Of a DNA stretch of 36,875 nt, positions 8,847 through 30,459 are shown one piece after another. The DNA is from a virus. Lineage: Duplodnaviria > Caudoviricetes. The notes below the pieces were generated by a model. It saw nothing but the letters and a program-made list of their open reading frames with translations, was not told the DNA's origin and made no database searches. Made by a program: the position numbers and the translations under genes. The number at the start of each line of letters is the position of its first letter. The stretch's first letter is position 1. The stretch is taken from positions 1 to 36,875 of the IMG/VR virus record IMGVR_UViG_3300033485_000049; one strand, written 5' to 3'.

Positions 8847-8852
8847 TGCAGA

Positions 8853-8923
8853 TCCCCCGATCTATGTGATTATTATTGAGGATACCGATCGGGGGAGATA
8901 AATACCCTCAATAAGTATCACAT
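8853..8923 (-). promoter_or_regulatory. Predicted SD-sequestering pseudoknot leader of the GIY-YIG/NUMOD3 gene
   Basis: Stem arms 8864-8886 / 8901-8923; loop 8887-8896 complementary to SD region 8853-8862; TATAAT at 8931-8936 on the minus strand. Confidence 0.75.
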
Positions 8924-8981
8924 TGTCAATATTATACTATAACCTCGCTATAATTTCCTTATTAACTTTTAAGGAACTCCC

Positions 8982-9383
8982 ATGAACCTATCAACCCTTG
9001 GTCAAGTCGAAGCAAAAGAATTTAACTTTATCGACGAATACACAAACCTTCCTACTGATATTTATGTAACCGTTTACCCTATGAAATCAAAAGTTGGCAA
9101 AAAAGCGGAAAACGATATGCGTCACCGTATTATTGAATTAATGCAAGATGAAAACAATATCATTGAAGTAGACGGGCAAAAGTCTTTAACAGAAAATCTT
9201 GTTAAATTGGAATCAATGCGTAGAGTAGCTGATTGTGTAGTAGGTTGGCGCGGTGTTCAAGATGATAAAGGTAAACAAATTGAGTTTTCACGCGATGAGT
9301 GTGTTAATCAGTTTTTACAATGTGAAGAGTTTGTTAATGCCGTGTTTGAGTTCTCGAATAACTTGGGAAACTTTACAGCGTAG
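8982..9383 (+). CDS. Tail assembly chaperone (lambda G analogue)
   Basis: Between tail tube and tape measure genes; VVGWRGV...IEFS motif; ends with slippery G GGA AAC. Confidence 0.85.
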   Translation: MNLSTLGQVEAKEFNFIDEYTNLPTDIYVTVYPMKSKVGKKAENDMRHRIIELMQDENNIIEVDGQKSLTENLVKLESMRRVADCVVGWRGVQDDKGKQIEFSRDECVNQFLQCEEFVNAVFEFSNNLGNFTA

Positions 9384-9817
9384 AGGATAACCTCCTCCTT
9401 TACGCGAAACAATCGGGGTATTTAGGTTGTATACCTGACAAAGAATATAAAGATAAAAAAGAAACATCACGGCAAGACGTTTTAGACGCAGGCGGTAAAG
9501 AGTACGCACTAGCTAATGTAGAAGGTGGGGAGTATTTATTACAACATTTAAATAACCTTGGATGGTGTAGCTCTAATGGTATGGGATTAAGCCCTATAAG
9601 CTTTACAGAGATAAAAGCATACATTGACACTACCGAAACATATCTAAGCGGTGAAGAGGCTCTATTAGTGCATAGAATGAGCCAATTGTATGTTAATGAG
9701 ATAAATGATAAGAACCCAAATAAAAAAGCTCCGTTTGAAGGGTTAGAAACTCAGCCAATGAGTCCTAATAGTATCATCAACGCGTTCGCCGGAATTGCTA
9801 CAATATCAGAGGCTTAG
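9365..9817 (+). CDS. -1 frameshift extension of the tail chaperone (lambda T analogue)
   Basis: -1 frame is open from 9365 to the 9817 stop and contains GMGLSPISFTEIKAY. Confidence 0.85.
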   Translation, partial: GKLYSVEDNLLLYAKQSGYLGCIPDKEYKDKKETSRQDVLDAGGKEYALANVEGGEYLLQHLNNLGWCSSNGMGLSPISFTEIKAYIDTTETYLSGEEALLVHRMSQLYVNEINDKNPNKKAPFEGLETQPMSPNSIINAFAGIATISEA

Positions 9818-9875
9818 ATAAGCCTCCTCCCCCTATTCGATATAATGTTAATAACATTCCAAAATAGGAAACATT

Positions 9876-12800
9876 ATGGCAGAAGAACATTCTCTGATTC
9901 TCAAAGTAGACTCTAGACAAGTAAAACAAGGCGAAAAAGACCTTAATAGCTTAAGCAACTCAGCTAATAAGACTGAAAAATCAACCAATGGAGTAACATC
10001 CTCTTTTTTATCTTTGGGTCGTGTACTATCTGCAACGGCACTTATAGGAACAACCGCACAATTCATTAAATTAGCCGATACTATGACGGGTATTGAATCT
10101 AAATTAAAGCTCGTTACCAAGTCCACTATGGAGCTAAAAATAGCTCAACAAGAGTTATTTACTATCTCACAAAATACACGCCAATCGTACGATGCAACCG
10201 TATCCACTTATTCAAACTTTGCACTCGCTATGGGAGAAATGGGTAAATCTCAAAAAGATATTTTAAGAGTAACCGAAACAGTAAACAAAGCTATTGCAAT
10301 TTCAGGCGGTACGGCTCAACAAGCGGCAGCGGCTACTATGCAACTCGGACAAGCGTTTGCAAGTGGAACTCTTCGAGGAGATGAACTAAATAGTATTTTA
10401 GAAAACTCCAAGGGACTTGCGAAAGCTATCGCAGACGGAATGGGTGTACCTATCGGTAAGCTTAGAACCCTTGGAAGTGAAGGGAAGATCACCGCTGAGA
10501 TTTTAGCAACAGCATTAGAAAAATCGGCTCAATCAGTCGATGAGAAATTCGGTAAAGTTGGGATTACCGTTGAGGCTTCAATGACAGTTGCCTCAAACTC
10601 TTTAACCAAAATTGTGGGAGAGTTAAATAGTGCTACGGGGGCAACATCATCTTTATCAGAAGAAATAACTGGATTTTCTAAATCAATCGATGATAATACT
10701 GAATCAATAGTTAATTTTGGTCGTTTTTCGGTTGCTACAATTGACCGTACTATCGATATGTTTAAAATGCTTGGAGGCTTTGCGGTTAATACAGCTGAAT
10801 ATGCTTTAGGTGGAATTTCTACTATTTATTATGGGGTAATGTCGCCTATTACAAGTGGATTATTAACAGTTACAGAAGGCTTAAATAGCATAGGATTATC
10901 ATCGGATAAAACGCTAAATAATGCAAAAGTATTAGCTAATAGTATGGATAAAAATCTAAAGCTATCACGTAAATCAATGCTTGATGATGTAGAAGATATG
11001 GATAACTTAATTAATGCAGCTTCCGATACAGTCGAGGAACGCGTCAGTGCTATGATTAAAAGATCGGGCGCAATAAAAGACTTAAAAGGAGGGGTTAATT
11101 CAGGTGGTAAAAAAGGTGTAGGAACTACTGAAACGGAAAAAGAACGTAAAGCACGTTTAAAAGACATTGAAGAAGAAGCAAAAATACAAAAAGGATATTT
11201 AGAGTCCTATGCTGAATTACAAGCCAATCAAGCGTTAGAAGATTATAACAATAAGATAGGTTATCTTGAATCTTATGCGGATATGGAAGCAAAAGCCGCT
11301 ATTGATAAATTTAATGCTCAAGAAGAAATAAGACAAACAACATTAAGTGAAGCTGAAAAAATAAACGAAAAAATGATGGCATTAGCTGAAAGTGGTGGGC
11401 TTGATTTTAATTCTGCTCCTATGATTGCATTTTTTGAAGAGATGAATAAACAGCTTGAAAATGCAGTGGAAAAAGTAAAAGAGTTCGACTCATTCAAACT
11501 AGAATTTGACGCTGAATCATTAGAAGGAACTCCAAAAGCTATCGCGGCCGTTGGAAAATCATTAGACAAATTAGCTCAAGCCGATAAGAAGTACAATGAG
11601 AAAAAAGCACTTTACAAAGAGGGTACGGAAGAGTTTAATAAAAATGAGCAGGAGCATACAAGTAATCAAATTATAGGCTACTCAAACCTTGCAGGTGCAA
11701 TGTCTACTATGTTCCAAGAAGGTAGCAAAGAGGCTCAAGCTATGCAAGCTGTACAAGCAAGCCTAGCAATGGTTGAGGCCACTTTAGCCGTTGTTCATGC
11801 TGGTACAGGTGGTGACGTTTATACTGCTATTCCAAGGATGATAGCAACGGCAGCAGTCGCAGCAAACGCACTATCTAATATAGGTAAGTCATTTAGCGGC
11901 GGAGGTTCTGCCCCTACGCTTCCAAAAAGCACTGTATTAGGCGCAAAAGCTGGAACAGAATCAGAAAGTACAACTAATATCGTTGATATACTAGAAGAGG
12001 CTCATGCTTCCGAATACAGCGAATTACGTGATATTAATAGAGCTGTTACATCAATGGCTCAGGGCATAGAGAGTGCCGTTGCTAATATATTCAAGAGCGG
12101 TATTTTAGATACGAGTGGTATCAAATTAAGTAGCTCAGGTGGAGCTGCTGAATCTACTATGAATTTTTATAGTAATACGCTTGGTAAATTAGTAGATAAA
12201 ACACTTGGAGGGGATAAGCTAACTCAATCTTTAATGGGTGCTACAGCAGGACTTTTAAGTAAAGCGTTTGGTGGTATCTTTGGAGGGTCATCTAAGCAAT
12301 ATATCGCAGGTTCAGGGTTTGATATTGCGGGTGGTAGCCTTGGAAGTAAGGCGGGAGGTAATATCGGTGCTTCGACATACGTAGACGTAGAAACGATGAA
12401 AAAGAAAGCGTGGGGATCTGCTTCATATTCCCATAATATCACTACCACGGCACTAGACGCGGCATCGTCTCAATCTATATCCCTAATCTACAAATCATTT
12501 AGCGATACGATGATGGAAATAAATAAGGGACTTGGAACTTCATTAGCTCCCGCGATCTCAAATTACACCCTTGATGCTATTAAAATAAGCACAGCAGGAC
12601 TTAGTGGTGAAGAAGTAATTAAGACTCTAAACGATAGATTTAGCGCTCTTGGCGACAAGATGACAAATGATATTTTTGGAAGGATACTAAGCCAATATCA
12701 AGACTTAGGGGAAGGACTACTAGAAACAGCAGTTAGGGTTATTACAGAAAAAGCTGTGGTAATGTCAAACCTTAAAGATATTAATAAGTCTATCTACGGT

Positions 12801-13568
12801 GACACTATTGCTATCACCCAAAGCCTTGTAGATTTAGCAGGAGGATTGACAGATTTTAGCGATGATAATGAGTCATACTATGATAAATATTTTAGTGATG
12901 CTGAAAAGCAAGTCAAGTTACAAGCGAAATTATCAGAATCATTTAGCTACTTGGGTGTTCGTATGCCTACTACCATTGAAGGATTTAGAAAGATAGTCGA
13001 AGGCACAGATTTATCAACATTAGCAGGTAGGGAGTTATTTACTGGGTTAATGGGGTTAAGTGAAGGATTTGCAGAACTTCAAGACAATATCAAAAATACT
13101 GATTTAAGTGGACTATTAGATGATATAAAAGCGTTTGTATCTTCGCTTAGAGCCGAAATAGTACCAATGTCTACCTCAACATCGTTTACTACATTTAGTA
13201 AATCATTTAATGATATGATTTCAGCTATTGCAAGTGGTTCAAGTAATTTAAGCGAGATAGGCACTAAAGCTATTGACAATGCAAGGGCATATATCGATAC
13301 TGTTACCGCTACCTCATCAGCAGGGCGCGACATAGCTTTTGCTAAAGCAGTTGTAGCAAATAAGTTTGAGGCAGTCACACTAGCCCCTAATATTACGATG
13401 GGAACGGTAAATGATACTCTTAAATTCTCACTTGGAGAACAAAGTTATATCGTTACCGAGCTAAGAGCTATGCGCCAAGAGTTGATTACAGCGAATCAGT
13501 TAGGGATTACACAGACGGCAAATAGTATTAATCAGTTGAGCGCTACACGAGCACTTTTACCAGCATGA
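9876..13568 (+). CDS. Tail tape measure protein
   Basis: 1230 aa; tape-measure domain QLGQAFASGTLRGDELNSILE; Ala/Gly-rich helical body. Confidence 0.95.
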   Translation: MAEEHSLILKVDSRQVKQGEKDLNSLSNSANKTEKSTNGVTSSFLSLGRVLSATALIGTTAQFIKLADTMTGIESKLKLVTKSTMELKIAQQELFTISQNTRQSYDATVSTYSNFALAMGEMGKSQKDILRVTETVNKAIAISGGTAQQAAAATMQLGQAFASGTLRGDELNSILENSKGLAKAIADGMGVPIGKLRTLGSEGKITAEILATALEKSAQSVDEKFGKVGITVEASMTVASNSLTKIVGELNSATGATSSLSEEITGFSKSIDDNTESIVNFGRFSVATIDRTIDMFKMLGGFAVNTAEYALGGISTIYYGVMSPITSGLLTVTEGLNSIGLSSDKTLNNAKVLANSMDKNLKLSRKSMLDDVEDMDNLINAASDTVEERVSAMIKRSGAIKDLKGGVNSGGKKGVGTTETEKERKARLKDIEEEAKIQKGYLESYAELQANQALEDYNNKIGYLESYADMEAKAAIDKFNAQEEIRQTTLSEAEKINEKMMALAESGGLDFNSAPMIAFFEEMNKQLENAVEKVKEFDSFKLEFDAESLEGTPKAIAAVGKSLDKLAQADKKYNEKKALYKEGTEEFNKNEQEHTSNQIIGYSNLAGAMSTMFQEGSKEAQAMQAVQASLAMVEATLAVVHAGTGGDVYTAIPRMIATAAVAANALSNIGKSFSGGGSAPTLPKSTVLGAKAGTESESTTNIVDILEEAHASEYSELRDINRAVTSMAQGIESAVANIFKSGILDTSGIKLSSSGGAAESTMNFYSNTLGKLVDKTLGGDKLTQSLMGATAGLLSKAFGGIFGGSSKQYIAGSGFDIAGGSLGSKAGGNIGASTYVDVETMKKKAWGSASYSHNITTTALDAASSQSISLIYKSFSDTMMEINKGLGTSLAPAISNYTLDAIKISTAGLSGEEVIKTLNDRFSALGDKMTNDIFGRILSQYQDLGEGLLETAVRVITEKAVVMSNLKDINKSIYGDTIAITQSLVDLAGGLTDFSDDNESYYDKYFSDAEKQVKLQAKLSESFSYLGVRMPTTIEGFRKIVEGTDLSTLAGRELFTGLMGLSEGFAELQDNIKNTDLSGLLDDIKAFVSSLRAEIVPMSTSTSFTTFSKSFNDMISAIASGSSNLSEIGTKAIDNARAYIDTVTATSSAGRDIAFAKAVVANKFEAVTLAPNITMGTVNDTLKFSLGEQSYIVTELRAMRQELITANQLGITQTANSINQLSATRALLPA

Positions 13569-13594
13569 TATAATTACATAAATAAGGATTAAAT

Positions 13595-13885
13595 ATGGCG
13601 CAACCAGTCTCAATTAAATATCTTGGAGCTGTTAGAGTTACCGCTGGATTAACATATCTATCGGCTGATATTATTACAGCATTTACTGGGGCGAATGTAT
13701 TGCAAGCAAAATCGGATATAGATTTAGCTACTGGTAAACTAAAAGATACTTTTATAAACGTTTCAATCAATGGGAGTCCTATGTTTCATTTTTCCGATGG
13801 TGATTATTGCTATATTGCATCAGGTCAATCATTTGTATTTGATAAAGACTTCACCGCAGCCGTCGGAACATACGTGGCTATCTGA
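13595..13885 (+). CDS. Small tail-tip-associated protein
   Basis: AAGGA RBS, TGATATAAT at 13566, position after the tape measure gene. Confidence 0.6.
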   Translation: MAQPVSIKYLGAVRVTAGLTYLSADIITAFTGANVLQAKSDIDLATGKLKDTFINVSINGSPMFHFSDGDYCYIASGQSFVFDKDFTAAVGTYVAI

Positions 13886-14928
13886 TGACATACATAGCGC
13901 AACAAATACCAGAGTTTACATCCTCAAATATTACTGAGACAGCATTAGCGTGGAGCGGTTCAACTTTAACAGCTGGGACTTTTGTAGTTGGTCAAAGATA
14001 TACTATCGTTTCAGTAGGAACAACAAACTTCACTTTAATAGGGGCGGCAAGTAATACTATTGGAGTTGTATTTGTAGCCACTGGGGTAGGAACTGGAACT
14101 GGTACAGCTATTACTACCTATAATGTAGGTGATTATTCATTATTTGGATCATTTGTATATAAAGCAGTATCTAACCATACTAATAAATCTCCAGATACTT
14201 ATGAGGGCGTATACTGGGTTAAATGGCAAATAAGTAATAAGTGGGCGATGTTAGATTTATCGGCTCAAAGTAAAAGCTATGTCAATGCTGGTAATCTAAC
14301 AGTCGAGTTTTTGCAAAATCGTATGAGCACTTTAGCTATTGGAAACTACGAAGCTGAATATGTGACAATTTCAATTTTAGATACCGATGGTACTACTATT
14401 TTATGGACGTATAATAACGAATCAGCATTAAATGAAAATGTAATTGATTACTACTCATATATTTATGAACCTTATGGGTATCAAGTAGATAGAGCCATTA
14501 AAATAGTCCTTCCATTATGGGGATATAAAGTAAAAGTTGAGTTCCATATTTCAGGCGATGCAACTAGAACAGCGTGTGGGTTCTTAGTTGGAGGTGATGA
14601 GGTAAATATGGGTGATACACTATGGGGAGTAAATTTCCGCTATAACTCATATTCAACAAAGACTTATGATGCATTTGGGACATTGACTATTGCAAAAAGA
14701 GCAGTTCAAGATTTAGTCGATTTTAATACTATTATCCCAACTGATGAGATAATGAATATGAAGAGAAATATCAAGGCTGTTTACAATGATATAATTGTAT
14801 TCATAATCAACGATAAGTCTACAGATTATGAGAATTTAATCACACTTGGAACTATTGAAAACGCATCGGTAGTATTATCACAAGCACAAATTACAACTAT
14901 GACATTTAGTGTCATAGAATCAATTTAA
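13885..14928 (+). CDS. Distal tail / tail-tip protein with possible carbohydrate-binding module
   Basis: YNVGDY...YKAV...P...W...SNKWAMLD and YSTKTYDAFG...KR motifs typical of post-TMP proteins. Confidence 0.65.
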   Translation: MTYIAQQIPEFTSSNITETALAWSGSTLTAGTFVVGQRYTIVSVGTTNFTLIGAASNTIGVVFVATGVGTGTGTAITTYNVGDYSLFGSFVYKAVSNHTNKSPDTYEGVYWVKWQISNKWAMLDLSAQSKSYVNAGNLTVEFLQNRMSTLAIGNYEAEYVTISILDTDGTTILWTYNNESALNENVIDYYSYIYEPYGYQVDRAIKIVLPLWGYKVKVEFHISGDATRTACGFLVGGDEVNMGDTLWGVNFRYNSYSTKTYDAFGTLTIAKRAVQDLVDFNTIIPTDEIMNMKRNIKAVYNDIIVFIINDKSTDYENLITLGTIENASVVLSQAQITTMTFSVIESI

Positions 14929-14937
14929 GGAGTATTT

Positions 14938-16215
14938 ATGCCTATAAGTCAAACAATAACAGCTATACCACGTGCAGGGCGTAGGGGAGTTGATGCTAGA
15001 ACCCCATTTGTTATTAACCAAGAAGCATTCCAAGGTGCTTTAGAGACCGTTACAGTACCTGAATTAAATAATTTTGCTACACAAGCTAATCTATTAGAGA
15101 CAAATGTAAATGCAAAAGAAGCAAGTGCGGTATTAGCCGAAGCAAGTGCGGTGGCGGCCGCAAACTTTAAAGGTACATGGACTAATCAAACAACAGCTAT
15201 TGGCGAGTCTTGGCTATATAATGGGGTTATTTATGGTGTCTTAATCGCTGGCAATACCTCCCCCATAGCGTCTCCATCTAATTGGTTTGCTTTATCATTG
15301 GCAAAACAGATAAATAACGCTACTTCAAAAACAACTCCCGTAGATGCAGACGAATTTGGAATTTGGGATAGTATTAGTGGTTTACTCAATAAAGTTACTT
15401 GGGCTAATATAAAGGCTACCATATCGTCGCATTTAGCATCAAATGGACAGCTCGGACGTAAAAACTACCTAATCAACGGTAACTTCAAAATCAATGAACG
15501 CGCTTACGTAAGTGGAGCTGCAACAGTTGGAGCGAACCAATATATCTTCGACAGATGGTATATCCCTACAACTGGACAAAGTGCAACATTCACAACTACA
15601 AATGGAATTGTAACTGTAACAGCTCCTGCAAGTGGTATTGTTCAAAAAGTGGAGAATATCTCCAATAACGGTGGAGCTATGACTGTATCTTACGTGGGTA
15701 CTGCAACGCTAACCGTAGCTGAATCAACAGATAATATAACCTACACAGCTATAACATTGACTGGTAAAACGTTTACCACAACCGCTGGAAACTATATTAA
15801 AATAACTCTTGCAAGTGGTACAGTATCACTAGTTAAGATTGAAGATGGAAGCGTAGCTACTGATGGTTGGAATCCGTATGACGGAGAGTTAGGTGGAGAA
15901 GTTCAGGCTTGTCAGAGGTATTTGCCTATTGAGTATGGGTATATGTTAGGTCAAGCAGTATCTACCACTCTTGCTTATTTCTTGTGTGTATTTAAAGTTA
16001 GACCAAGAGTAGTTCCTACTGGAGTATCAACAACTGTTGCTGGGGTTATAACTAATGCTTCAGCAGGCGCATTAACTATTACTGGGTTAACATTCTCTGA
16101 CTCAACACTATCTGCGGGGAGAGTTAGTATCACTGTTGCATCTGGACTTGTAGCAGGGGACGTTTCCACTGCCGTGCCTACAAATAAACTTCTATTTACG
16201 GGATGTGAACTATGA
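14938..16215 (+). CDS. Tail fibre / receptor-binding protein
   Basis: ATSKTTPVDADEF...KVTWANIKA linker, RKNYLINGNFKINER, FDRW, CQRY fibre motifs. Confidence 0.82.
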   Translation: MPISQTITAIPRAGRRGVDARTPFVINQEAFQGALETVTVPELNNFATQANLLETNVNAKEASAVLAEASAVAAANFKGTWTNQTTAIGESWLYNGVIYGVLIAGNTSPIASPSNWFALSLAKQINNATSKTTPVDADEFGIWDSISGLLNKVTWANIKATISSHLASNGQLGRKNYLINGNFKINERAYVSGAATVGANQYIFDRWYIPTTGQSATFTTTNGIVTVTAPASGIVQKVENISNNGGAMTVSYVGTATLTVAESTDNITYTAITLTGKTFTTTAGNYIKITLASGTVSLVKIEDGSVATDGWNPYDGELGGEVQACQRYLPIEYGYMLGQAVSTTLAYFLCVFKVRPRVVPTGVSTTVAGVITNASAGALTITGLTFSDSTLSAGRVSITVASGLVAGDVSTAVPTNKLLFTGCEL

Positions 16216-16637
16216 TTTTTAAATTATGTAATAATGGTAAATCCGTTGTAGGAATAAGAGAAGATGGTGCAACTGTTTCGTACTCTATTGAAGCAGAAGA
16301 ATACAAACAATGGCTATCAGTAGGTAATACTCCTGAACCTGAGTTTACACAAGTGGAATTAATGGCTAATGCTATTGTTCATTTTGAAAGCATGACTGAT
16401 ACTTTTATCCAACGTAAGGTCAATGAGTATAACTCTTTAAATGGGGTAAAATTTAAAGACATTGACGCATTCCCAAAATACGCTATGAATACATCAAGCG
16501 CACATTATGCTATTGCTAATAAGTTTATTGCTTATGCCGACAAAGTATGGAGTGCTATACGATTGTATCAATCAACGGCAACAACTATTCCAACCGATGT
16601 TGAATTTCAAACTGTATTGGATGGGGTATTATTCTAA
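16212..16637 (+). CDS. Putative tail fibre assembly protein
   Basis: EYKQWLSVGNTPEPEFT motif typical of post-fibre proteins. Confidence 0.65.
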   Translation: MIFKLCNNGKSVVGIREDGATVSYSIEAEEYKQWLSVGNTPEPEFTQVELMANAIVHFESMTDTFIQRKVNEYNSLNGVKFKDIDAFPKYAMNTSSAHYAIANKFIAYADKVWSAIRLYQSTATTIPTDVEFQTVLDGVLF

Positions 16638-18091: not shown

Positions 18092-18232
18092 ATGTGGACA
18101 AAAATTCTAATCGATATAATCGCAAGTAATCTTACTAAAGAAATAGTCGAGCTATTGCTTGATAAAATTGCGGATAGCCTTAAAAACAAAGCTACTCGCG
18201 ACGATGTGGATAAACTAAAGGCTACTTTATAG
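18092..18232 (+). CDS. 46-aa amphipathic protein after the endolysin
   Basis: MWTKILIDIIASNLTKEIVELLLDKIADSLKNKATRDDVDKLKATL; AAGGT RBS. Confidence 0.55.
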   Translation: MWTKILIDIIASNLTKEIVELLLDKIADSLKNKATRDDVDKLKATL

Positions 18233-18502
18233 TCCAAACTCGGTTTTAATATCGAGAATCTTATTGCTTTTTGACTCAATTTTATCGCTGATAATTTTGA
18301 GTAATCTAGCTCTAATTCGTTGCTGTTCATCGGTGATACTACCGCCTAGTCTATATATACCGCTCAAACGATCGTAATTGATACGCAGAACCATCAACTC
18401 CTCTTCTAAGTGTCTCATTAGCTCGAAGTGAGAAATGCCCGTGAGATTACAGTATTGCTCACGTGTAACGCCATATACTTCTTCAATGCTAAACTCTTTC
18501 AT
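18227..18502 (-). CDS. Hypothetical protein, paralogue of 30462..30731
   Basis: FSIEEVYGVTREQY...RARLLK shared with the other copy; probable start MKEF at 18502. Confidence 0.8.
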   Translation of the reverse strand: MKEFSIEEVYGVTREQYCNLTGISHFELMRHLEEELMVLRINYDRLSGIYRLGGSITDEQQRIRARLLKIISDKIESKSNKILDIKTEFGL

Positions 18503-18713
18503 TCTTTGCCTCTTTGTATCCAAGATTAAACCCAAAGTCGATAAGCTCTTTTACAATCGTTTTAATCGAGTCTTTCGCTTTGGGACTCACATCGTATTTA
18601 TCCATCAATTTTCCGACTACTGCCATAGCGTCGTACTCATCTTTTACCTTTGAAAATAGCTCATCAATCTCTTTGTTATCTTCTAATTCTTTATCGGTTC
18701 TTTTTGGTCTCAT
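18489..18713 (-). CDS. Hypothetical protein
   Basis: GGAG RBS before MRPKRTDKEL; overlaps neighbouring ORFs in the operon. Confidence 0.6.
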   Translation of the reverse strand: MRPKRTDKELEDNKEIDELFSKVKDEYDAMAVVGKLMDKYDVSPKAKDSIKTIVKELIDFGFNLGYKEAKNERV

Positions 18714-18885
18714 TATTTCTCCATAAATTACTAGCATTTTTAGCTCTAAGGCATCCGCAGCTCTTAGTTAGTCCATCACGTACCGAATCATCACGACACG
18801 TAAATAAAAGCCCACAGTGGCATTTAAACACGCTCACGTTACGATACTTCTGTCTTTCATAAAACCTTACGAATTCAACTTGCAT
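18691..18885 (-). CDS. Stand-alone CxC...KSCGC zinc-ribbon protein
   Basis: FKCHCG...GLTKSCGC resembles the N-terminal domain of 24396..25049. Confidence 0.7.
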   Translation of the reverse strand: MQVEFVRFYERQKYRNVSVFKCHCGLLFTCRDDSVRDGLTKSCGCLRAKNASNLWRNNETKKNR

Positions 18886-22105: not shown

Positions 22106-22125
22106 ATTTTCACCTCTTTTTATTT

Positions 22126-22993: not shown

Positions 22994-23592
22994 TTCTTTA
23001 ATTTACTATAATTTAATTCTAGCTCATTAACAAAATCATTTAAATGAGTTTCCATCTTTTTAATATACTCTTCATCACGATAAACTCTAATTTCATAAAA
23101 GTCCATAGATGGATGAAATGCAAGAAAATCCCACCACTCACGCCCACTTATCATTAAGCTACCCATCACTTGTGGTTTATACTCCAAAGGAAGCCCACCG
23201 TCGAGCATATATTTAACAACCGTACTGGCTTTAGGACTTTTAATCTCTAACCCACCGTTATCGCCTATAAGACCATCAGGGCTAATTCCTATTGTCATTT
23301 CGTCATTAAAAATCATTCCTACTTGTTGCACTTCTACTTCGTGCATAAATTCATACGAAGCTCTCGCTAAAGGTTCAATCTCATTGCCACGATCCATCCA
23401 TTCAGACTTAAAAAATCCTTCTCGATCTTTAGTGAGTCTTTCCGCTATAAGCTCATACATATAAGCCTTATAGCTTGTTGATTTATCCCCCTTCAATGGC
23501 GTGATAATATCTTTAAATCTTGACGCAGTCGGAACACCTAAGCGAAGTGCGTGCCACTCATCACTCCCCTGCTCAAGATTTAGGATTTTCAT
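22990..23592 (-). CDS. YqaJ / lambda-exonuclease-like recombinase
   Basis: QGSDEWHALRLG.PTAS, RGNEIEPLAR, SPDGL, LEIKSP, PQV. Confidence 0.93.
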   Translation of the reverse strand: MKILNLEQGSDEWHALRLGVPTASRFKDIITPLKGDKSTSYKAYMYELIAERLTKDREGFFKSEWMDRGNEIEPLARASYEFMHEVEVQQVGMIFNDEMTIGISPDGLIGDNGGLEIKSPKASTVVKYMLDGGLPLEYKPQVMGSLMISGREWWDFLAFHPSMDFYEIRVYRDEEYIKKMETHLNDFVNELELNYSKLKK

Positions 23593-24178
23593 CTTTTTTA
23601 GCCTTTTGAGTTAATAGGTTAATAACGTGCTTCAATTGAACGCCCGATAAATCTGCAACTGCTCCTACTTTGTAATTCTTTAAAATCCAAGTAGTTGTGG
23701 CATCTGAATCTGACGTATTTTTTATTAATACCGAAAGCTCCTCTCTCATTTCAATAGTGTCATCGGTCATATCGCTCGGACGGTTATTCATATCTTCAGG
23801 GTCAATATCACTTAATCCCAAAATACGAATAGTTAAAATTCTGCTCCAATAACCAAATTGCTTACCTCTTTCAATTTCTGCATCAAGATACATTTCATTA
23901 CCGTTTTTATCTTTACGTGGAGCAACAGTAGGTAATTTAATACATGATTCTATACTATCCCCACTTCCAACGTGCCAAAGGGTAACAACTACACTATCAT
24001 CTTTCATGGTAGAAATTATCTCTAAGCCACATTCGATTAACGGCTGTTGGATTGTCTTGATAACATTATCCTCTCCTGCAAACTTCCAAGAACCACCCCC
24101 CCCGTCTTTTTGCTTATCTGCTACAAGAGTAACGCCTTTTTTTCTAAAATCTGATTTAGCTTTTAACAATTCTTTCAT
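23573..24178 (-). CDS. ERF-like ssDNA-annealing protein
   Basis: PLIECGL, TLWH.GSG..IE, G...Y..R....ILGL...D is a divergent ERF signature; adjacent to the exonuclease. Confidence 0.65.
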   Translation of the reverse strand: MKELLKAKSDFRKKGVTLVADKQKDGGGGSWKFAGEDNVIKTIQQPLIECGLEIISTMKDDSVVVTLWHVGSGDSIESCIKLPTVAPRKDKNGNEMYLDAEIERGKQFGYWSRILTIRILGLSDIDPEDMNNRPSDMTDDTIEMREELSVLIKNTSDSDATTTWILKNYKVGAVADLSGVQLKHVINLLTQKAKKDENPKS

Positions 24179-24399
24179 ACAAAATCCTTCACATTAATAT
24201 CAAAATCAATCATTTCGCCAGTTTCTTGGCACTCAATTTGGATAACAATATTATCGCTATCCTCTCCGTCTTCGATAGCCTCTTTTATTTGTCGAACTAT
24301 CTCAGGCTCATCGCTTTTTTCCAACTCGTAAAACTCCATACGGATACCACGGTTTCCGTCAATATCCGAGCCGTAGTTTTTTTCAATTATTCTAATCAT
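24175..24399 (-). CDS. Acidic hypothetical protein
   Basis: NYGSDIDGNRG motif; ATGA-coupled. Confidence 0.65.
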   Translation of the reverse strand: MIRIIEKNYGSDIDGNRGIRMEFYELEKSDEPEIVRQIKEAIEDGEDSDNIVIQIECQETGEMIDFDINVKDFV

Positions 24400-25049
24400 C
24401 TTATTACCACCTTGTTTAATGTATGCTCAAGATTATTCTCTAAAACATAATTATCATAAGCTTTTGCAGCATCTATTGCGTGTGCAAAAGTTCCTATATA
24501 CTTTTTATTTCCATTTATGCCTACTACCGCCCTCCATCTTTTTGTTAATTTATGGAAACTTACTCCTCTATACCCACTTGTATTATTTGATTGGAGTAAA
24601 CGTTTATTTCTTGATTGCATTGTTTTTGTAGCCCATCTACAATTATTAGGTTCATAATTACCATTATTGTCTATCCTGTCAATACTTAAATCTTTTTGAT
24701 AGCTTGGATACATATCTTCAATGAATTTATTAATATCCATCCATCTTTCACAAACCTCGATACCTCTTCCGCCATACTTATCAAAATGTTTTACTTTTGG
24801 ATTGTTAGTTCTCCTTATCATATTATCCCATGTATGGTATAGTGGATGGTTAGACAGCCCATGTTTTTTATAACAACCGCATGATTTAGTATTTCCCCGT
24901 TGTACATTATCAGTTCTTGTTTTAAATTCAACCCCACAACTACACCTATAAATACCATAGCTAGATTTTTGTTTAGATGTAGCAGTAGGGTATGAATACC
25001 CCAGATCTTCAATTAAAACTAGCATTGTTGTATTAATTATTTCTAACAT
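24396..25049 (-). CDS. HNH homing endonuclease with N-terminal zinc ribbon and C-terminal AP2 domain
   Basis: CSCG..KSCGC, YGGRGIEVCERW, SIDRIDNNGNYEPNNCRWAT, NTSGYRGV...AAKAYD. Confidence 0.9.
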   Translation of the reverse strand: MLEIINTTMLVLIEDLGYSYPTATSKQKSSYGIYRCSCGVEFKTRTDNVQRGNTKSCGCYKKHGLSNHPLYHTWDNMIRRTNNPKVKHFDKYGGRGIEVCERWMDINKFIEDMYPSYQKDLSIDRIDNNGNYEPNNCRWATKTMQSRNKRLLQSNNTSGYRGVSFHKLTKRWRAVVGINGNKKYIGTFAHAIDAAKAYDNYVLENNLEHTLNKVVIR

Positions 25050-25055
25050 TAAAGT

Positions 25056-25126
25056 CCTCCACGACTTAAAAATTTATGAGAGAGGTAAATGCGTGGAGGC
25101 AGTAGATTACCTCTCGAATAAACTTT
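25056..25126 (-). promoter_or_regulatory. Predicted SD-sequestering pseudoknot leader of the HNH-AP2 gene
   Basis: Arms 25069-25088 / 25107-25126; loop 25092-25099 complementary to 25056-25063 (GGAGG SD); TATACT at 25137-25142 on the minus strand. Confidence 0.75.
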
Positions 25127-25136
25127 CTACTTTAAA

Positions 25137-25207
25137 AGTATAACGAAACAATTATTAATTTAGTATTAATTTAACCTCTTGACAATAAATATTATAACGT
25201 GTATAAT
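25137..25207. promoter_or_regulatory. Divergent early promoter region
   Basis: Leftward TATACT at 25137-25142; rightward TTGACA at 25179 and TATAAT at 25202 (17-bp spacing). Confidence 0.7.
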
Positions 25208-25233
25208 TTCGTAATACATAAAAAAGGAATGAA

Positions 25234-25419
25234 ATGAGTGATACAAATTTGTTTAAATCCTATGAGATTGCAGAGCGTTTTGGTATTCCGAAACAAACTG
25301 CTTCGAATTGGGCAAAAGAAGATAAAACATGGAGAAAACAACTCTATACACAATTAGAGAAGTTTTTAGCAAGAGAGTTAGCTGAGAAGGCTATTAAGAT
25401 GGGAGATAAAAATGTTTAA
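25234..25419 (+). CDS. Cro-like HTH transcription regulator
   Basis: EIAERFGIPKQTASNW helix-turn-helix; first rightward gene. Confidence 0.75.
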   Translation: MSDTNLFKSYEIAERFGIPKQTASNWAKEDKTWRKQLYTQLEKFLARELAEKAIKMGDKNV

Positions 25420-25867
25420 CCAATTAACGCTACTTGGAAATTTAACACGTGACATCGAGCTAAAATACACTCAATCAGGAATCGCAGTTGCATCGACTGG
25501 AATTGCAACATCACATAAATTCAAAGTGAACGAAGAGCAGCGAGAAGAGGTTATGTTTATTGACTTAACTTTTTTTGGTCGTAGCGGTGAAATTGCAAAC
25601 CAATATTTACGTAAAGGGTCAAAAGTATTCATTACTGGACGATTAAAACTTGACCAATGGGATGATAAAGAGACAGGCGTAAAACGCTCAAAGCATACGG
25701 TAATTGTTGAAACTATGAAAATGCTGGACTCAAAACCAACAGATGGACAGCAAGAACAAAAACCATACACGCCACCTACTCCACAGTATGAGAGAGCACC
25801 CGCTCAACCTATGCCTGAAAATACGCTTCCATCAATCGACATCGACATGGAGACAATCCCATTTTAA
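25412..25867 (+). CDS. ssb: Single-stranded DNA-binding protein
   Basis: LLGNLTRDIELKY, YLRKGSKV, acidic C-terminus ending IPF. Confidence 0.96.
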   Translation: MFNQLTLLGNLTRDIELKYTQSGIAVASTGIATSHKFKVNEEQREEVMFIDLTFFGRSGEIANQYLRKGSKVFITGRLKLDQWDDKETGVKRSKHTVIVETMKMLDSKPTDGQQEQKPYTPPTPQYERAPAQPMPENTLPSIDIDMETIPF

Positions 25868-25903
25868 TCTGCATTTTTTGCAGGTTATGATATAATACTG
25901 ATA

Positions 25904-26005
25904 AACTTTTAGAGGACTACCAATTCCGTGGACGATTTGATCGTCCTCTAAGAGTTAAGCTTTAAGCGTGTGATGGAATTGGTAGTTCCCCTCACTCCTC
26001 TTAAA
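25904..26005 (+). promoter_or_regulatory. Two-hairpin leader with complementary loops upstream of rha
   Basis: actaccaattcc (25916-25927) is complementary to ggaattggtagt (25975-25986); TGATATAAT at 25888. Confidence 0.65.
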
Positions 26006-26029
26006 ATAATCATACCGAAAGAATAAACA

Positions 26030-26689
26030 ATGTCAAACGTAATCATCAACAATGTTGAGGTTCATTTAGTTTCCCGTGATGGGTCAATATTTGCAAACAG
26101 TTTAGAATTAGCCGCAGTTTTTCAAAAACTACATAAAGACGTAATCAGAAAAATACATGATTTAAACGATAGAGCAAAGCGTAATTTTACGCTTAAGTAT
26201 TATCAAAGTAATGGAAAAGAATTTCCTATGTATGAAATGAACCGTGATGGGTTTATGTTTTTGGCTATGGGATTCACTGGTTCGGAAGCTGAGAGTTTTA
26301 AACTAGATTTGATTGACGCTTTTAATGAAATGGAACGACAAGTTAAAGAAACTCCAAAACTACCAACTAACCCGATGGAAATCCTACAACTCGTTTTCGA
26401 TGCTCAAAAAGCAACTAATATTGAATTGATTGAAATTAAGGATGATCTCGAAGGACTTAAAAATGATATTGTACTAACTCCGGCACAAAAACGCATCTTG
26501 CAAAAATCGGTAAGCTCAAAAGTTTACAGCTTCAATGCTCCATCCGAATCAAATAAAAAGCTATTTAGTAAAATATATTCAAAACTAAAAGACCGATATT
26601 TTATTAGCAGTTATATGGAAATCCAACGCCTACAATTTAACGAAGCAAAAAGTATGGTTGATAATATCACGCTTATTGATTTGGTTTGA
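26030..26689 (+). CDS. rha: Rha-family phage regulatory protein (possible ORF6C-like C-terminus)
   Basis: SLELAAVFQKLHKDVIRKI, PMYEMNRDGFMFLAMGFTG..A..FK...IDAFNEME. Confidence 0.9.
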   Translation: MSNVIINNVEVHLVSRDGSIFANSLELAAVFQKLHKDVIRKIHDLNDRAKRNFTLKYYQSNGKEFPMYEMNRDGFMFLAMGFTGSEAESFKLDLIDAFNEMERQVKETPKLPTNPMEILQLVFDAQKATNIELIEIKDDLEGLKNDIVLTPAQKRILQKSVSSKVYSFNAPSESNKKLFSKIYSKLKDRYFISSYMEIQRLQFNEAKSMVDNITLIDLV

Positions 26690-26699
26690 GGGGGATGGC

Positions 26700-26897
26700 A
26701 TGAAAGATATATCTATTTTACAAGATGAGTATAAAGATTTATTTATTAAAACTATTGCTTATGAAGCTATGCTTGACCCAAATGATATGTGGATGGCTTA
26801 TAATGAGTTTGATGCACATAAAGAAATGGTTGGAGATGATTTTATTGGAAACCCACAATTTGAAGCAAAAGAGTGTTTGAGTTATTGGATTGACTAA
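26700..26897 (+). CDS. Acidic hypothetical protein
   Basis: GAGGGGG RBS before MKDISILQDEY. Confidence 0.6.
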   Translation: MKDISILQDEYKDLFIKTIAYEAMLDPNDMWMAYNEFDAHKEMVGDDFIGNPQFEAKECLSYWID

Positions 26898-26926
26898 TTT
26901 TAACAAAATAACGCTATAATACCTAA

Positions 26927-27085
26927 GCCAAACTTCGGTTTGGTGGACAAAAGCTTTTAAATAAGAGCCGTTTCTCCTTTGGTCGGGTTGGCGGTTCTGA
27001 TTTAAGTGCTTTGGAGAGAAACCCGACCGCATATCTCTCACTTAAAACAATCACTTAAATTTAAAATAGCGGTATCTAAGGATAC
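26927..27085 (+). promoter_or_regulatory. Structured leader with complementary loops upstream of the replication initiator
   Basis: TATAAT at 26915; cUUCGg hairpin 26927-26944; ggtcgggtt (26981-26989) complementary to aacccgacc (27020-27028). Confidence 0.65.
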
Positions 27086-27087
27086 AA

Positions 27088-27867
27088 ATGAGATGGACGT
27101 TAAACGTAAATCAAAAACAATCTTTATGTCTTGGCATTAAAAACATAAATCAGTCCATTATTTTAGGGCTTATTTGTGAATGTCATTCGTGGGCTGAAGC
27201 TGTCTTAATTGACGGACAAGTATTCTATTGGACTTCAAGACAATCGTTCTCTAAAGAGCTTCCTTTGCTAGATTTAAAAGCAGATACAATCTACCGTCAT
27301 TTAAAAACTCTCGAACAATTAGGGCTTATTGAGTATAAAAAAGACGGTAAAAAAGACTGTGTTAGATTAACTAAATTAGGTAAAAGTTACTATGTCGGAA
27401 ATGAATCCGAATTTAGTGAAAACTCGGAAATGAATCCAACTAAACTCGGAAATGAATCCGAAAATAACTCGGAAATGAATCCGACATATCCTAATACTAT
27501 ATCTAATCATAATACTAATAAAATAATATATAGTGATTTTGTTAAAATATTTTCATTCGTTGATGAGGACAGTTTTATAAAAATGATTTCTCACTTAAAA
27601 ACAAAACATTATAACCTTACTAAACATAGAGTTAAAAATAATATTAACAAGCTAATAAACAATCCTGATTTATTTAAACTTGCAGTTGATAAAATGATTG
27701 AGCTTGATTACAGCGGTTTATTTATACCATCTTTAACTCCAATTAAAAAACAGTATGAACCGACTAAAAGCAAAATGGATGTAACAATGGAAACTTACGA
27801 AAGAGTCCAAGAGATGAAGCGACAACAAGCTGGAAAGCAAAATGTGATTGATGGGGAGATAGTATGA
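27088..27867 (+). CDS. Replication initiator (lambda O-like, winged HTH)
   Basis: N-terminal wHTH (TIYRHLKTLEQLGLIEY) and internal iteron array. Confidence 0.8.
   Translation: MRWTLNVNQKQSLCLGIKNINQSIILGLICECHSWAEAVLIDGQVFYWTSRQSFSKELPLLDLKADTIYRHLKTLEQLGLIEYKKDGKKDCVRLTKLGKSYYVGNESEFSENSEMNPTKLGNESENNSEMNPTYPNTISNHNTNKIIYSDFVKIFSFVDEDSFIKMISHLKTKHYNLTKHRVKNNINKLINNPDLFKLAVDKMIELDYSGLFIPSLTPIKKQYEPTKSKMDVTMETYERVQEMKRQQAGKQNVIDGEIV
27395..27484. repeat. Four iterons (TCGGAAATGAATCCGA), probable replication origin
   Basis: Copies begin at 27395, 27424, 27446 and 27469 and are followed by an AT-rich tract. Confidence 0.85.
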
Positions 27868-28520
27868 AAGATTCAATGACCGACAAAATGAACAAGATAC
27901 ACAACATAGACTGCTTAGAGTTTATGAAGCAAGTACCTGATAAATACTTTGATTTGGTGCTAACTGACCCACCGTATGGGATAGATTTAGCGAATATGAA
28001 TATGGGAGCTGGTAAATCAGCAAAGTGTTCGAGGATAGAAAATCGTAAATGGGAAGCAAAAGACTGGGATAAAAAAACTCCAGATCAAGAAATATTTAAT
28101 GAAATATTTAGAATTTCAAAGCATCAAATTATATGGGGAGGTAATTATTTTGATTTACCGCCATATAAATTTTATATCTTATGGGATAAAGAAATACCAA
28201 ACGGATTGAGTTTTGCAGACTGTGAAATTGCGTGGACTTCTTACAATAAAGCACCTCGTATTTTTAGATATTCAGCATATCAGGATAAAAATAATAAGTT
28301 TCATCCAACTCAAAAGCCGTTGAAGCTATTTGATTATTGCCTAAGAACTGCAAATGACAAACAAGAGATTAAAACCATATTTGACCCATTTATGGGAAGC
28401 GGAACAACTGCCGTAGCGTGTCAATCGCTAGGGTTAGAGTGGTGTGGATGTGAACTCGAAGCCGATTATGTAGCAATAGCAAATAAACGCTTAGAAGCTG
28501 TGCAGGGGAGTTTGTTTTGA
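27864..28520 (+). CDS. DNA N6-adenine/N4-cytosine methyltransferase (beta class)
   Basis: DPPY precedes HPTQKP and DPFMGSGTT. Confidence 0.93.
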   Translation: MKDSMTDKMNKIHNIDCLEFMKQVPDKYFDLVLTDPPYGIDLANMNMGAGKSAKCSRIENRKWEAKDWDKKTPDQEIFNEIFRISKHQIIWGGNYFDLPPYKFYILWDKEIPNGLSFADCEIAWTSYNKAPRIFRYSAYQDKNNKFHPTQKPLKLFDYCLRTANDKQEIKTIFDPFMGSGTTAVACQSLGLEWCGCELEADYVAIANKRLEAVQGSLF

Positions 28521-29119
28521 AAGACCTAATAGACTACATAGCACAACTCTTCGGGCTAGAAATGAAAAGCACTATCAGTATCATGGATATGGAGCAAGAT
28601 ATAGGTGAAATACAAAACCACGCTGAATACGTCCGATACCTAAAAAATGGATTTAACCTCGATGATATTAAGTTTCTAACAGCTTATCAAAAGTTTCTCA
28701 CACTCACGAAGCGGTATAAGGCTATTGAAGCGGAAACTATCAATAAGCACCGCATTGAAATGATGGGGTCACTTGCAGAGAAGCTATCTGAGAAGGTTAA
28801 GCAATTCGACGTATCTATTCTGAACCATCCATATAAAGATAAGCTAAAATGGGAAAATATCAAAAGTGTAGACGATGTTGAGGTAAACTTTTTCAGCCAT
28901 AAGGAAATTTTGGCATTGAGTACAATAGGACAACCGCTACACTGCATTGAGATTCAACGTGCTATAAGTGGTCGTGATTGTCTAACAGAACGTCTTGAAG
29001 AGATTTTTATATCAAAAGTTACTCAAGGTATTGCTATTGAAAATAAAAGCCATACAGATGATATTAGAGCTAATACCGACGTAATGCAATTAGCAAAAAA
29101 TTTAGTGAATAGAGGGTGA
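28517..29119 (+). CDS. Hypothetical protein (possible helicase loader, by position only)
   Basis: 200-aa ORF in the replication module; no recognised motif. Confidence 0.55.
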   Translation: MKDLIDYIAQLFGLEMKSTISIMDMEQDIGEIQNHAEYVRYLKNGFNLDDIKFLTAYQKFLTLTKRYKAIEAETINKHRIEMMGSLAEKLSEKVKQFDVSILNHPYKDKLKWENIKSVDDVEVNFFSHKEILALSTIGQPLHCIEIQRAISGRDCLTERLEEIFISKVTQGIAIENKSHTDDIRANTDVMQLAKNLVNRG

Positions 29120-29126
29120 AATAAAA

Positions 29127-29402
29127 ATGATAACCTCTCATTTCCTGCAACAAAAAGGCTATACTCCAAAACAAAGCACAAGCATAATGCGAAAGCTAAA
29201 ATCTCTAAACTGTGAAGTAAAAGAGATTAAAATATGTTCTGAGTACGTCAGAAACGGTACTACGTGCAATTATCTACGGTTTAGTAATGGAATCGGTCAC
29301 ATTGAAGCTTTAAACGCTTTAAGACGCTACAATGATAATATGGCAAAAAACGCTGATAAAAAGTTTTGGACGTTGGTTTTACAAAATATGGAGGCGATGT
29401 GA
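29127..29402 (+). CDS. Hypothetical protein
   Basis: GAGGGT RBS; coupled to the ninG-like gene. Confidence 0.6.
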   Translation: MITSHFLQQKGYTPKQSTSIMRKLKSLNCEVKEIKICSEYVRNGTTCNYLRFSNGIGHIEALNALRRYNDNMAKNADKKFWTLVLQNMEAM

Positions 29403-29944
29403 TGAGAACTTGCAAAATATGCAAAGATAAGTTTGAGCCAAGCCCTAATATGTTTTGCCCCCCAACTTGTGAAAAGTTCGAGTGTAGAAACGAATACGTT
29501 ATGAAGCATTTAAACAAAAAAAAGCGTGAAGTAAACAAAGAAAATGCAAAAGCAAAAAAAGAGTTTAACGAGAATGATCGCAAGTTCCTTTTAGAGTTAG
29601 CACAAAAAACTGTTAATACTTTTATCCGTATGCGTGACGGTAAGTACTGCATATCTTGTGAATCAAGTGGGGAAGGTAGACAATATCAGGCGGGGCATTA
29701 CAAGTCGCAAGGCGGTAACAGCGCATTACGATTTGATGAAAATAATCTGAATGTACAATGCGTATACTGCAATATGCATCAAAGCGGAAACCTTGCAAAA
29801 TATCGAATAAACCTGATTAAAAAAATAGGAATTGATGAGGTAATATATTTGGAAACCACAAAAAATACAAAGCTTTGGACGGTGGACGAATTGAAAGGTA
29901 TTATTAAGATTTATAAGCAGAAAATAAAGGAATTACAGGTATAA
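29402..29944 (+). CDS. ninG: NinG/Rap-like HNH resolvase
   Basis: CKIC, AQKTVNTFIRMRD, CISC, AGHY, LRFDENNLNVQCVYCN...GN...YRINLIKKIG; GGAGG RBS before MRTC. Confidence 0.88.
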   Translation: MRTCKICKDKFEPSPNMFCPPTCEKFECRNEYVMKHLNKKKREVNKENAKAKKEFNENDRKFLLELAQKTVNTFIRMRDGKYCISCESSGEGRQYQAGHYKSQGGNSALRFDENNLNVQCVYCNMHQSGNLAKYRINLIKKIGIDEVIYLETTKNTKLWTVDELKGIIKIYKQKIKELQV

Positions 29945-30064
29945 TAACACAATCGATGAACTTGGTAATAAGATTCATGTCTCTTAAGCAATTAATCGGT
30001 GTTTATCATAACTGAGTATTTGGGTATGATTTATTGACAAACTCCCATTTGGGAGCGTCGTATG

Positions 30065-30141
30065 TTTGATTTTAAATAGGCACTTGAAGAGTTTTTCACC
30101 TTCTCGCTTTGAGTGTCCATTTAAAATCAAAAAAAGGTGAA
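30065..30141 (+). promoter_or_regulatory. Predicted SD-sequestering pseudoknot leader
   Basis: Arms 30065-30089 / 30107-30131; loop ttcacctt (30095-30102) complementary to aaggtgaa (30134-30141). Confidence 0.72.
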
Positions 30142-30144
30142 TAC

Positions 30145-30459
30145 ATGAGTAAAAAACAAAAGCTACGTGATGATATTGAGCTCTTAGAGATTTATGCCGA
30201 AGCATTAGAGATTGAGTTGAAGTTAGCACACGATGATAACGAGGACGTGAACCGACGTTTGGGTATTGCCAACTCAACGGTATGCAAACAAATTGATGAG
30301 ATTACACAACTTACTGATATTATTCAAAGCTATGTAAAACACATCGAAATGATTAATAGACAGTTAGAGCAACAAGACAAAGCAATCGAACGAAAAGACT
30401 CTCAATGGTTGGGCTTACGTATGGCGTTTCAAGATGCGCTAATAAATAATCAGGTTTAA
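30145..30459 (+). CDS. Coiled-coil hypothetical protein
   Basis: AAGGTG RBS before MSKKQKL at 30145; heptad pattern. Confidence 0.7.
   Translation: MSKKQKLRDDIELLEIYAEALEIELKLAHDDNEDVNRRLGIANSTVCKQIDEITQLTDIIQSYVKHIEMINRQLEQQDKAIERKDSQWLGLRMAFQDALINNQV

Follow-up and report, generated by a model that had tools for sequence, protein, structure and literature searches.

Introduction

Several homing-endonuclease genes of T-even phages (I-TevI, I-TevII, I-TevIII, segB and Aeh1 mobE) carry hairpins that sequester the ribosome-binding site (RBS) (PMC2988022, PMC3014915). In the portions of these sources drawn on here, the Shine-Dalgarno (SD) sequence lies within the stem of a single hairpin, and release comes from a late promoter whose transcripts contain only part of this structure. 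Here we analyse the complete virus record IMGVR_UViG_3300033485_000049 (36,875 bases with direct terminal repeats, 36.6% G+C; this whole stretch is the window), in which two nuclease genes, at sites S1 and S2, are each preceded by two adjoining predicted hairpins (P1 and P2) and the SD sequence lies outside P1 and is predicted to pair with the P1 loop. As with the T-even hairpins, the predicted structure stands directly upstream of a homing-endonuclease gene, at S1, S2 and in 14 further copies (not at a third site, S3), whereas its predicted promoter is upstream of the whole structure in 15 of the 16 copies. We propose, with a probability of about 0.68, that the S1/S2 leaders would act as a cis translational lock in which a loop/SD pseudoknot is the OFF state. 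By analogy, such a leader would work like the T-even endonuclease hairpins while failing two of the features that define them in these sources, the SD in the stem and the promoter shift.

Other described RNAs resemble parts of this arrangement. The hairpin of seg43(25), a free-standing endonuclease gene of Aeromonas phage 25, is stable and lies just upstream of an RBS outside its stem, and the review leaves its function open (PMC2988022). Read from the genome, it has about 9 base pairs (bp) and a loop of 6 nucleotides (nt; GAUAAA) that is not complementary to the AGGAG site, and it was rejected as the same design. Staged masking of the SD is described for the Helicobacter pylori aapA3 mRNA and the leader of the MS2 maturation gene: hairpins that exist briefly during transcription hide the SD until a more stable anti-SD pairing takes their place, and in MS2 the delay provides a window of translation (PMC6733600). 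The portion of that source drawn on here gives aapA3 a long-range 5'-3' interaction, 3' processing and an antisense RNA, unlike the S1/S2 leader, and describes neither RNA as a compact pseudoknot module that moves between genes. The 5' untranslated region of Salmonella and other enterobacterial timP is, as proposed here, a purely structural pseudoknot switch for a harmful protein that involves no processing (PMC13000454); in the sections considered its pseudoknot activates translation without SD pairing, whereas the S1/S2 pseudoknot is predicted to bury the SD. Finally, DNAVirus_8080, DNAVirus_8377 and DNAVirus_1290 are computationally listed RNAs of 79-105 nt in IMG/VR phages, located no more than 25 bp ahead of genes from several nuclease families (PMC10690425). 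These candidates, compared by their table entries only, precede mixed HNH, GIY-YIG and AP2 genes with no mechanism proposed there, and short motif and contig-name searches in part of the supplement files gave no match. As far as these sources extend, the S1/S2 leader is not a new class, because masking of the RBS has precedents among nuclease genes and candidate RNAs have already been listed (PMC10690425). A description of a loop/SD pseudoknot leader on nucleases was not found in the full-text literature, a search to which most subscription papers are external.

Leaders at three genes of the window

An initial annotation of the window had proposed three leaders of one architecture, and the coordinates that it gave for the hairpins, loop segments, SD segments and start codons all agree with ours. 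The features are as follows.

8931-8936, minus strand: S1 -10 box (TATAAT), predicted from sequence and from spacing in homologues
8864-8923, minus strand: S1 hairpin P1, with a 7-bp outer stem, 2x2 internal loop, 14-bp inner stem and 14-nt loop
8887-8896, minus strand: S1 anti-SD segment UCCCCCGAUC in the P1 loop
8850-8863, minus strand: S1 hairpin P2, 5-6 bp, containing the SD
25137-25142, minus strand: S2 -10 box (TATACT), predicted from sequence and from spacing in homologues
25068-25127, minus strand: S2 hairpin P1, with a 10-bp AU-rich outer stem, 2x2 internal loop, 9-bp inner stem and 18-nt loop
25092-25099, minus strand: S2 anti-SD segment CCUCCACG in the P1 loop
25052-25067, minus strand: S2 hairpin P2, 5 bp, with the SD in its 6-nt loop
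30042-30055, plus strand: small GC hairpin 5' of S3
30065-30131, plus strand: S3 long hairpin, 25 bp, 13-nt loop, anti-SD at 30095-30102, no P2
30134-30141, plus strand: S3 SD segment AAGGUGAA, 8-bp match, followed by the ATG at 30145

The long hairpin totals 21 bp at S1, 19 bp at S2 and 25 bp at S3. At S1 the predicted transcription start (8924) is one base ahead of the stem, and the loop matches the SD segment at 8853-8862 (minus strand) over 10 bp, with the ATG at 8846. At S2, where transcription is predicted to start at 25130, the P1 loop is complementary over 8 bp to the SD segment CGUGGAGG at 25056-25063 (minus strand), with the ATG at 25049. The annotation had described P1 correctly but as the only hairpin of each leader, and so missed P2, which adjoins P1 and contains the SD segment in all 15 distinct nuclease leaders considered below (4-6 bp, -2.3 to -5.9 kcal/mol), often with the SD core in its loop. 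The single architecture claimed for the three leaders holds for S1 and S2; S3 is of a separate type, which lacks P2, an adjoining -10 box and a nuclease gene. The -10 box placed upstream of each leader is likewise present at S1 and S2 only, no hexamer adjoining the S3 stem (the nearest candidate, TATGAT, ends at 30030), and the loop range of 14-18 nt fits S1 (14) and S2 (18) and not S3 (13).

The three hairpins and their loop/SD matches are real and beyond chance. A detector for a long hairpin closely followed by an SD-bearing segment, with exact complementarity of at least 7 nt between this segment and the loop, and then by a start codon, returned 2 of the 322 starts of the window at a cost cut-off of 3.0 kcal (S2 and S3, with S1 missed at 4.4) and exactly S1, S2 and S3 at a cut-off of 4.5. 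On shuffled upstream regions it returned 34 of 523,872, a rate on which a chance origin of the matches was rejected. As the detector was designed after the sites had been seen, homologues are the stronger test.

Loop and SD sequences change together in homologous leaders

Among 2,636 open reading frames (ORFs) of the window and related contigs the detector made 19 matches, 16 before nucleases and 3 before other genes. The 16 nuclease leaders (15 distinct) precede 14 HNH-AP2 genes, the GIY-YIG gene of S1 and one gene of endonuclease-VII type. In P1 of the 15 distinct leaders the coding strand carries 33 G-U pairs against 1 A-C, in keeping with the earlier reading of several stem mismatches as G-U wobbles. 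Because of this polarity a strand-symmetric DNA hairpin is excluded, and a DNA cruciform was rejected on the same count.

In seven aligned leaders the loop/SD helix is 100% paired and 6 of its 8 pairs have changed on both sides, although kinship among the seven reduces these double changes to about three independent events; on that footing the covariation that had been suspected from the three sites alone is borne out. The 15 leaders contain 12 different perfect loop/SD helices of 8-11 bp (-11 to -21 kcal/mol), most leaders having been selected for the match. When each loop was compared with all tails, its own tail ranked first as a partner in 11 of 15 and second or third in the remaining 4. 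In L003, the nearest HNH-AP2 relative in IMG/VR (61% identity), the S2 leader is present with the helix CCUUCACG/CGUGAAGG where S2 has CCUCCACG/CGUGGAGG, a compensatory change. A pattern that specifies the P1 stem alone provides an unbiased test, as it does not require the loop/SD match; it gave 7 matches in IMG/VR (5 distinct leaders), and 7 of 7 have both the loop/SD match and an HNH-AP2-type gene. Judged by these substitutions, the leader structure is RNA on the coding strand and its loop/SD pairing is selected.

Hairpins near the 5' end of an RNA stabilise mRNA, and P1 begins near the predicted 5' end, about where the conserved block also starts. The structure might then serve mainly in 5'-end protection, or as a DNA hairpin for mobility, with an incidental loop/SD match. 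We regard this as extremely improbable, since the compensatory loop/SD changes and the chance rate of the detector exclude an incidental match and the excess of G-U over A-C excludes the DNA form.

In riboswitches of the preQ1 and SAM-II type a pseudoknot buries the SD, the ligand pocket is highly conserved and the downstream genes are metabolic. A metabolite riboswitch of this type was rejected for the leader, as a rough alignment of 12 sequences has 5 invariant columns and the downstream genes encode nucleases. Pseudoknot leaders of the IncI/IncB repZ type have a dedicated antisense RNA against the loop. For S1 and S2, no second SD-like or antisense copy of either loop target occurs elsewhere in the window, so that nothing there points to a dedicated antisense RNA acting in trans. 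A cis-antisense effect, by read-through onto S1, which lies against tail genes, is possible.

Geometry and energetics of the proposed pseudoknot

The last loop of an H-type pseudoknot spans the minor groove of stem 1 (PMC3835772). The order of elements in the leader (S1-L1-S2-S1'-loop-S2', in which S1 and S2 denote stems and not the sites) matches this fold, and both helices are conserved. A simple rise-per-base estimate indicates that at least 7-9 stretched nt are needed across 18-22 bp, versus an available linker of 0-6 nt. The full 18-22-bp P1 and the loop/SD helix thus cannot coexist in one molecule, and 3-8 outer P1 pairs must therefore open, after which the linker is long enough by the same estimate. 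The H-type pseudoknot of the initial annotation accordingly keeps its element order and its loop/SD covariation but is sterically impossible with the full stem of ~20 bp, and an intramolecular loop-loop kiss with both stems whole was rejected on geometry.

G-C pairs account for 6% of the outer 8 pairs of P1 and 40% of the inner ones. Counted from its outer end, the stem is first interrupted after pair 7-10 in 11 of 15 leaders, near the number that must open. The outer P1 stem covaries too, and because it does so while being incompatible with the pseudoknot, both folds appear to be selected. In a crude energy model (nearest-neighbour stacks plus an assumed pseudoknot penalty of 9.6 kcal/mol) the partly melted pseudoknot is favoured over P1+P2 in 15 of 15 leaders, by 1.2-10 kcal/mol.

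Conservation of an outer stem that is incompatible with the pseudoknot would also be explained by a cleavage-released switch, in which RNase III cuts the 3' strand of the full 18-22-bp P1 and detaches the anti-SD loop, turning translation on. The length of P1 and its small internal loops do resemble RNase III substrates. A literature search on activation through this enzyme turned up general reviews only. The AU-rich outer stem and the position of the break nevertheless fit melting that requires no enzyme, and a cut could destabilise the run of recombination genes at S2, which leaves RNase III release unlikely.

Alternatively P1 may remain whole while its loop engages the SD of a second, identical transcript, so that translation would fall as transcripts rise. 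In 8 of 15 leaders the loop/SD helix is flush with P1 at both ends, with spacers of 0 nt (loop) and 0-1 nt (tail), which allows coaxial stacking between molecules and not within one intact molecule, and helix energies of -11 to -21 kcal/mol also favour such a pairing. Against this, opening just 3-8 weak pairs, at a cost of a few kcal/mol, is enough for the cis form, and local concentration strongly favours cis over intermolecular pairing; we judge the intermolecular lock very unlikely. We put just as little trust in the leader as an RNA-only copy-number sensor, in which head-to-tail, coaxially stacked dimers or chains would seal each other's ribosome sites. If true, nuclease would be made from the first few transcripts and then shut off as the phage genome replicates. 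Plain refolding, in which the loop/SD helix replaces P1 as an ordinary fold-back hairpin and no pseudoknot forms, is the nested minimum-energy fold for two leaders (L405 and L407) but lies 5.8-15.2 kcal/mol above P1+P2 in the other 13 of 15, S1 and S2 included, and merits scant belief.

Predicted promoter and portability of the cassette

TATAAT or TATACT occurs at most 22 nt upstream of the leader in 15 of 16 copies, against a background of about 0.9%, and the RNA is predicted to start at a purine 1-7 nt before P1. Two RNA runs yielded nothing, which speaks neither for nor against expression. Antisense cassettes probably bring their own promoter, since 5 of the 16, including that of S1, are antisense to both neighbours. 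An assembly contig from a second study is the only S1 leader homologue seen; it matches window 8841-8925 exactly, and the promoter region and ORF on either side differ. Single-protein searches with the S1 gene found one distant locus, which is without the leader. In the assembly contig of a relative, the sequence departs from the window (~8949) exactly upstream of the S1 promoter, yet matches the next tail gene; this is consistent with insertion of the GIY-YIG cassette.

The leaders of L167 and L428b are 95% identical and the proteins behind them 5% identical (HNH-AP2 versus endonuclease-VII type). From the genes that follow it, the leader is portable across HNH-AP2, GIY-YIG and endonuclease-VII-type genes. 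The occurrence of near-identical leaders on unrelated nucleases makes it unlikely that the nuclease regulates itself; with no relief factor found, the relief by a protein that had been envisaged is not upheld. Nucleases of different families behind the leader often start MLEN, MLNNQ or MLEK (window 8846 and 25049, and related loci), suggesting that the first codons travel with the module.

Membership and distribution of the leader family

S1 and S2 are likely, from their sequence and predicted fold, to be members of one RNA leader family of ~85 nt. Covariance models R1 and R2, built from two subgroups, each recover members of the other. Model R2, made without S1 and S2, ranks them as its top two matches in the window (S2 at 31.9 bits, E 1.4e-5; S1 at 21.7 bits, E 0.005; these E-values are rough), whereas S3 scores 11.2 bits (E 2.3), at noise level. 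A covariance model of the leaders, as the annotation had envisaged, therefore works for S1 and S2 when built from relatives and fails for S3, and its view that the three leaders do not share their sequence is too strong for S1 and S2.

The leader is present on 14 of 20 HNH-AP2 ORFs in the window and related contigs. In a wider set of loci the architecture precedes 7 of 255 HNH ORFs and 5 of 7,962 other ORFs; five of the seven belong to the S1/S2 family and two (L129 and L204) are unrelated in sequence. Model R1, run over 100 of 238 HNH loci, found no members besides two known ones, and the remaining loci were covered by the detector and partly by model searches. Loose DNA patterns gave mostly chance matches, with the architecture in 5 of the 96 unique matches listed for one and in 2 of 38 for another. 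In cultured phages the S2 leader has no DNA match beyond a 30-nt match to the coding end, and the best protein matches there are about 40%. The HNH-AP2 profile found 1 of 401 Campylobacteria genomes, the seed itself; a single R2 match in such genomes (1 of 151) was rejected because on reading it lacks the leader architecture.

The comparison with Rfam called for by the initial annotation was made. No Rfam 15 family, c4, c4-a1b1 and the pseudoknot riboswitches included, matched the window at its gathering threshold, E-value scans of the window gave noise only (E > 0.3), and eight related loci gave nothing at gathering score except a tRNA. The int-alpA family (RF02996; threshold 35.8 bits) has 0 matches in the genome even at E 10.

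Other structured leaders were seen in these loci. On L204, a Clostridiales metagenome-assembled contig, two related hairpin leaders with loop/SD matches (~1855-1940 and ~4350-4425, plus strand) precede an HNH gene and a 450-amino-acid (aa) ORF; their sequence is unrelated to the S1/S2 family and has no Rfam match. L427 (~1730-1840, plus strand) and the HNH-AP2 gene of L438 (leader end near 10805, minus strand) share a different structured leader just after the -10 box, with the core GAG[A/C]GGATTAATTACCC; both HNH-AP2 genes are without an S1/S2-type leader, and theirs is possibly a second RBS-masking family. In L003 an insert of ~95 nt (~440-533, plus strand) between the -10 box and the leader contains crossing complementary segments that could form another pseudoknot, and it has no Rfam or tRNA match.

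The S3 leader

S3, which heads late genes, is probably a weaker leader that follows the same plan independently. It differs from the S1/S2 family in having no P2, no adjoining -10 box and a non-nuclease gene, and its loop/SD helix is weak (-8.9 kcal/mol). S3-like long hairpins occur before small non-nuclease genes ahead of terminase-like genes in L006/L007 and in L417, the latter with a 7-bp match only. The L006/L007 look-alike, directly after a tRNA-Ser, precedes another gene with the same helix core as S3, and L006 also has a homologue of the 104-aa gene of S3 without such a leader, as does the contig of a relative. These findings would suit a leftover leader of a lost gene, or a pyrimidine loop that acts in trans on messages with an AGGUGA SD, a sequence also found ahead of an ORF whose leader ends at 22115 (minus strand). 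For S3 only, such an origin or action is possible though doubtful: in the window, L006/L007 and L417 the complement 1-4 nt after the stem is the SD of the next gene, and since this is so in all three cases, action of the S3 type in cis is indicated.

Gene context

The three genes behind the leaders are the following.

8001-8846, minus strand: GIY-YIG/NUMOD3 homing-endonuclease gene, 281 aa (Pfam NUMOD3; phrog_314 homing endonuclease, E 3e-30; GIY-YIG motif read from the sequence)
24396-25049, minus strand: HNH-AP2 endonuclease gene, 217 aa (Pfam AP2; phrog_374 HNH, E 2e-62)
30145-30459, plus strand: gene for a 104-aa protein of unknown family (without a Pfam family; one weak PHROG, function unknown)

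The GIY-YIG gene is antisense inside the tail-gene operon, the HNH-AP2 gene heads a leftward gene run that includes recombination genes, and the 104-aa gene is the first in a run toward terminase-like genes. The 104-aa protein has 19 database matches, itself included, and no nuclease match in Pfam or PHROG. By its best DNA match the window comes from a wetland metagenome. The host of the window phage is probably of the phylum Campylobacterota, because the ten best plasmid matches to its single-stranded DNA-binding protein are all from that phylum; the phages carrying the 16 leader copies are probable Campylobacterota phages.

Several further features were noted. A fourth nuclease gene (6564-7448, minus strand; weak T5orf172, phrog_681) is antisense among the tail genes. 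A 64-aa ORF (18691-18885, minus strand) that overlaps the end of the upstream gene resembles the N-terminal zinc-binding part of the HNH-AP2 family, and a similar ORF occurs in L427. The small ORFs 30462-30731 (plus strand) and 18227-18535 (minus strand) look like paralogues by eye, both being near FS.EE.YG..RE.Y, and are without a PHROG family. Short repeated and inverted segments cluster at 27406-27484 inside the winged-helix gene 27088-27867, which we take to be as expected of a replication origin in an initiator gene. A 127-aa ORF with an HEIAH motif (34872-35255, plus strand) has PF07737 as its sole Pfam match (E 4e-4, below the curated cut-off), probably reflecting a generic zinc-peptidase motif.

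Discussion

In the proposed lock, the cassette promoter would start the RNA 1-7 nt ahead of P1, which would fold first, and the weak P2 would then cover the SD as it emerges. Contact of the P1 loop with the SD would open P2 and the 3-8 AU-rich outer pairs of P1, and the more stable structure that would then form, an H-type pseudoknot (a 13-16-bp stem and an 8-11-bp loop/SD helix), would be the OFF state. Loading of ribosomes would be confined to the delay or to moments when the structure breathes, giving little nuclease per transcript, and no ligand or protein would be needed for the lock. From its conserved pairing the leader likely keeps nuclease translation low. The annotated switch on toxic nucleases fits the tight link to free-standing nucleases (S1, S2 and 14 further copies) and does not extend to S3, which precedes a non-nuclease gene.

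Several points weigh against this reading. Transcription start, folding and repression are all predicted, and the margin in favour of the pseudoknot at S1 and S2 is only 1.5-1.7 kcal/mol in a crude model with an assumed penalty; at S3 the same model places the pseudoknot 2 kcal/mol above the open state, and in the contig of a relative the S3 gene starts behind its own -10 box with no hairpin. The members of the family were partly picked by a detector that requires the match, and the sample is small and related. The family link of S1 is moderate (E 0.005 with R2, missed by R1), and P2 covaries at 1 of 5 pairs in the one alignment counted, a value reached by 268 of 500 shuffles. Six of the 20 HNH-AP2 ORFs in the same contigs have no leader, and the nuclease gene at 6564-7448 has a short leader without the loop/SD architecture. 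Lastly, limitation of toxicity is an assumed purpose, since in T4 deletion of the I-TevI hairpin did not lower viability via nuclease damage, according to the part of the review considered (PMC2988022).

What is understood of translational control in homing endonucleases comes almost entirely from T-even phages, in which it depends on a promoter shift. The S1/S2 family suggests a second solution, a self-contained module of ~85 nt with two mutually exclusive folds that could serve in any transcription unit. With its natural series of 12 loop/SD variants, so short a module would be a model for kinetic versus equilibrium control by 5' pseudoknots, and the leader is a possible small, tunable part with which laboratory strains might express harmful proteins.

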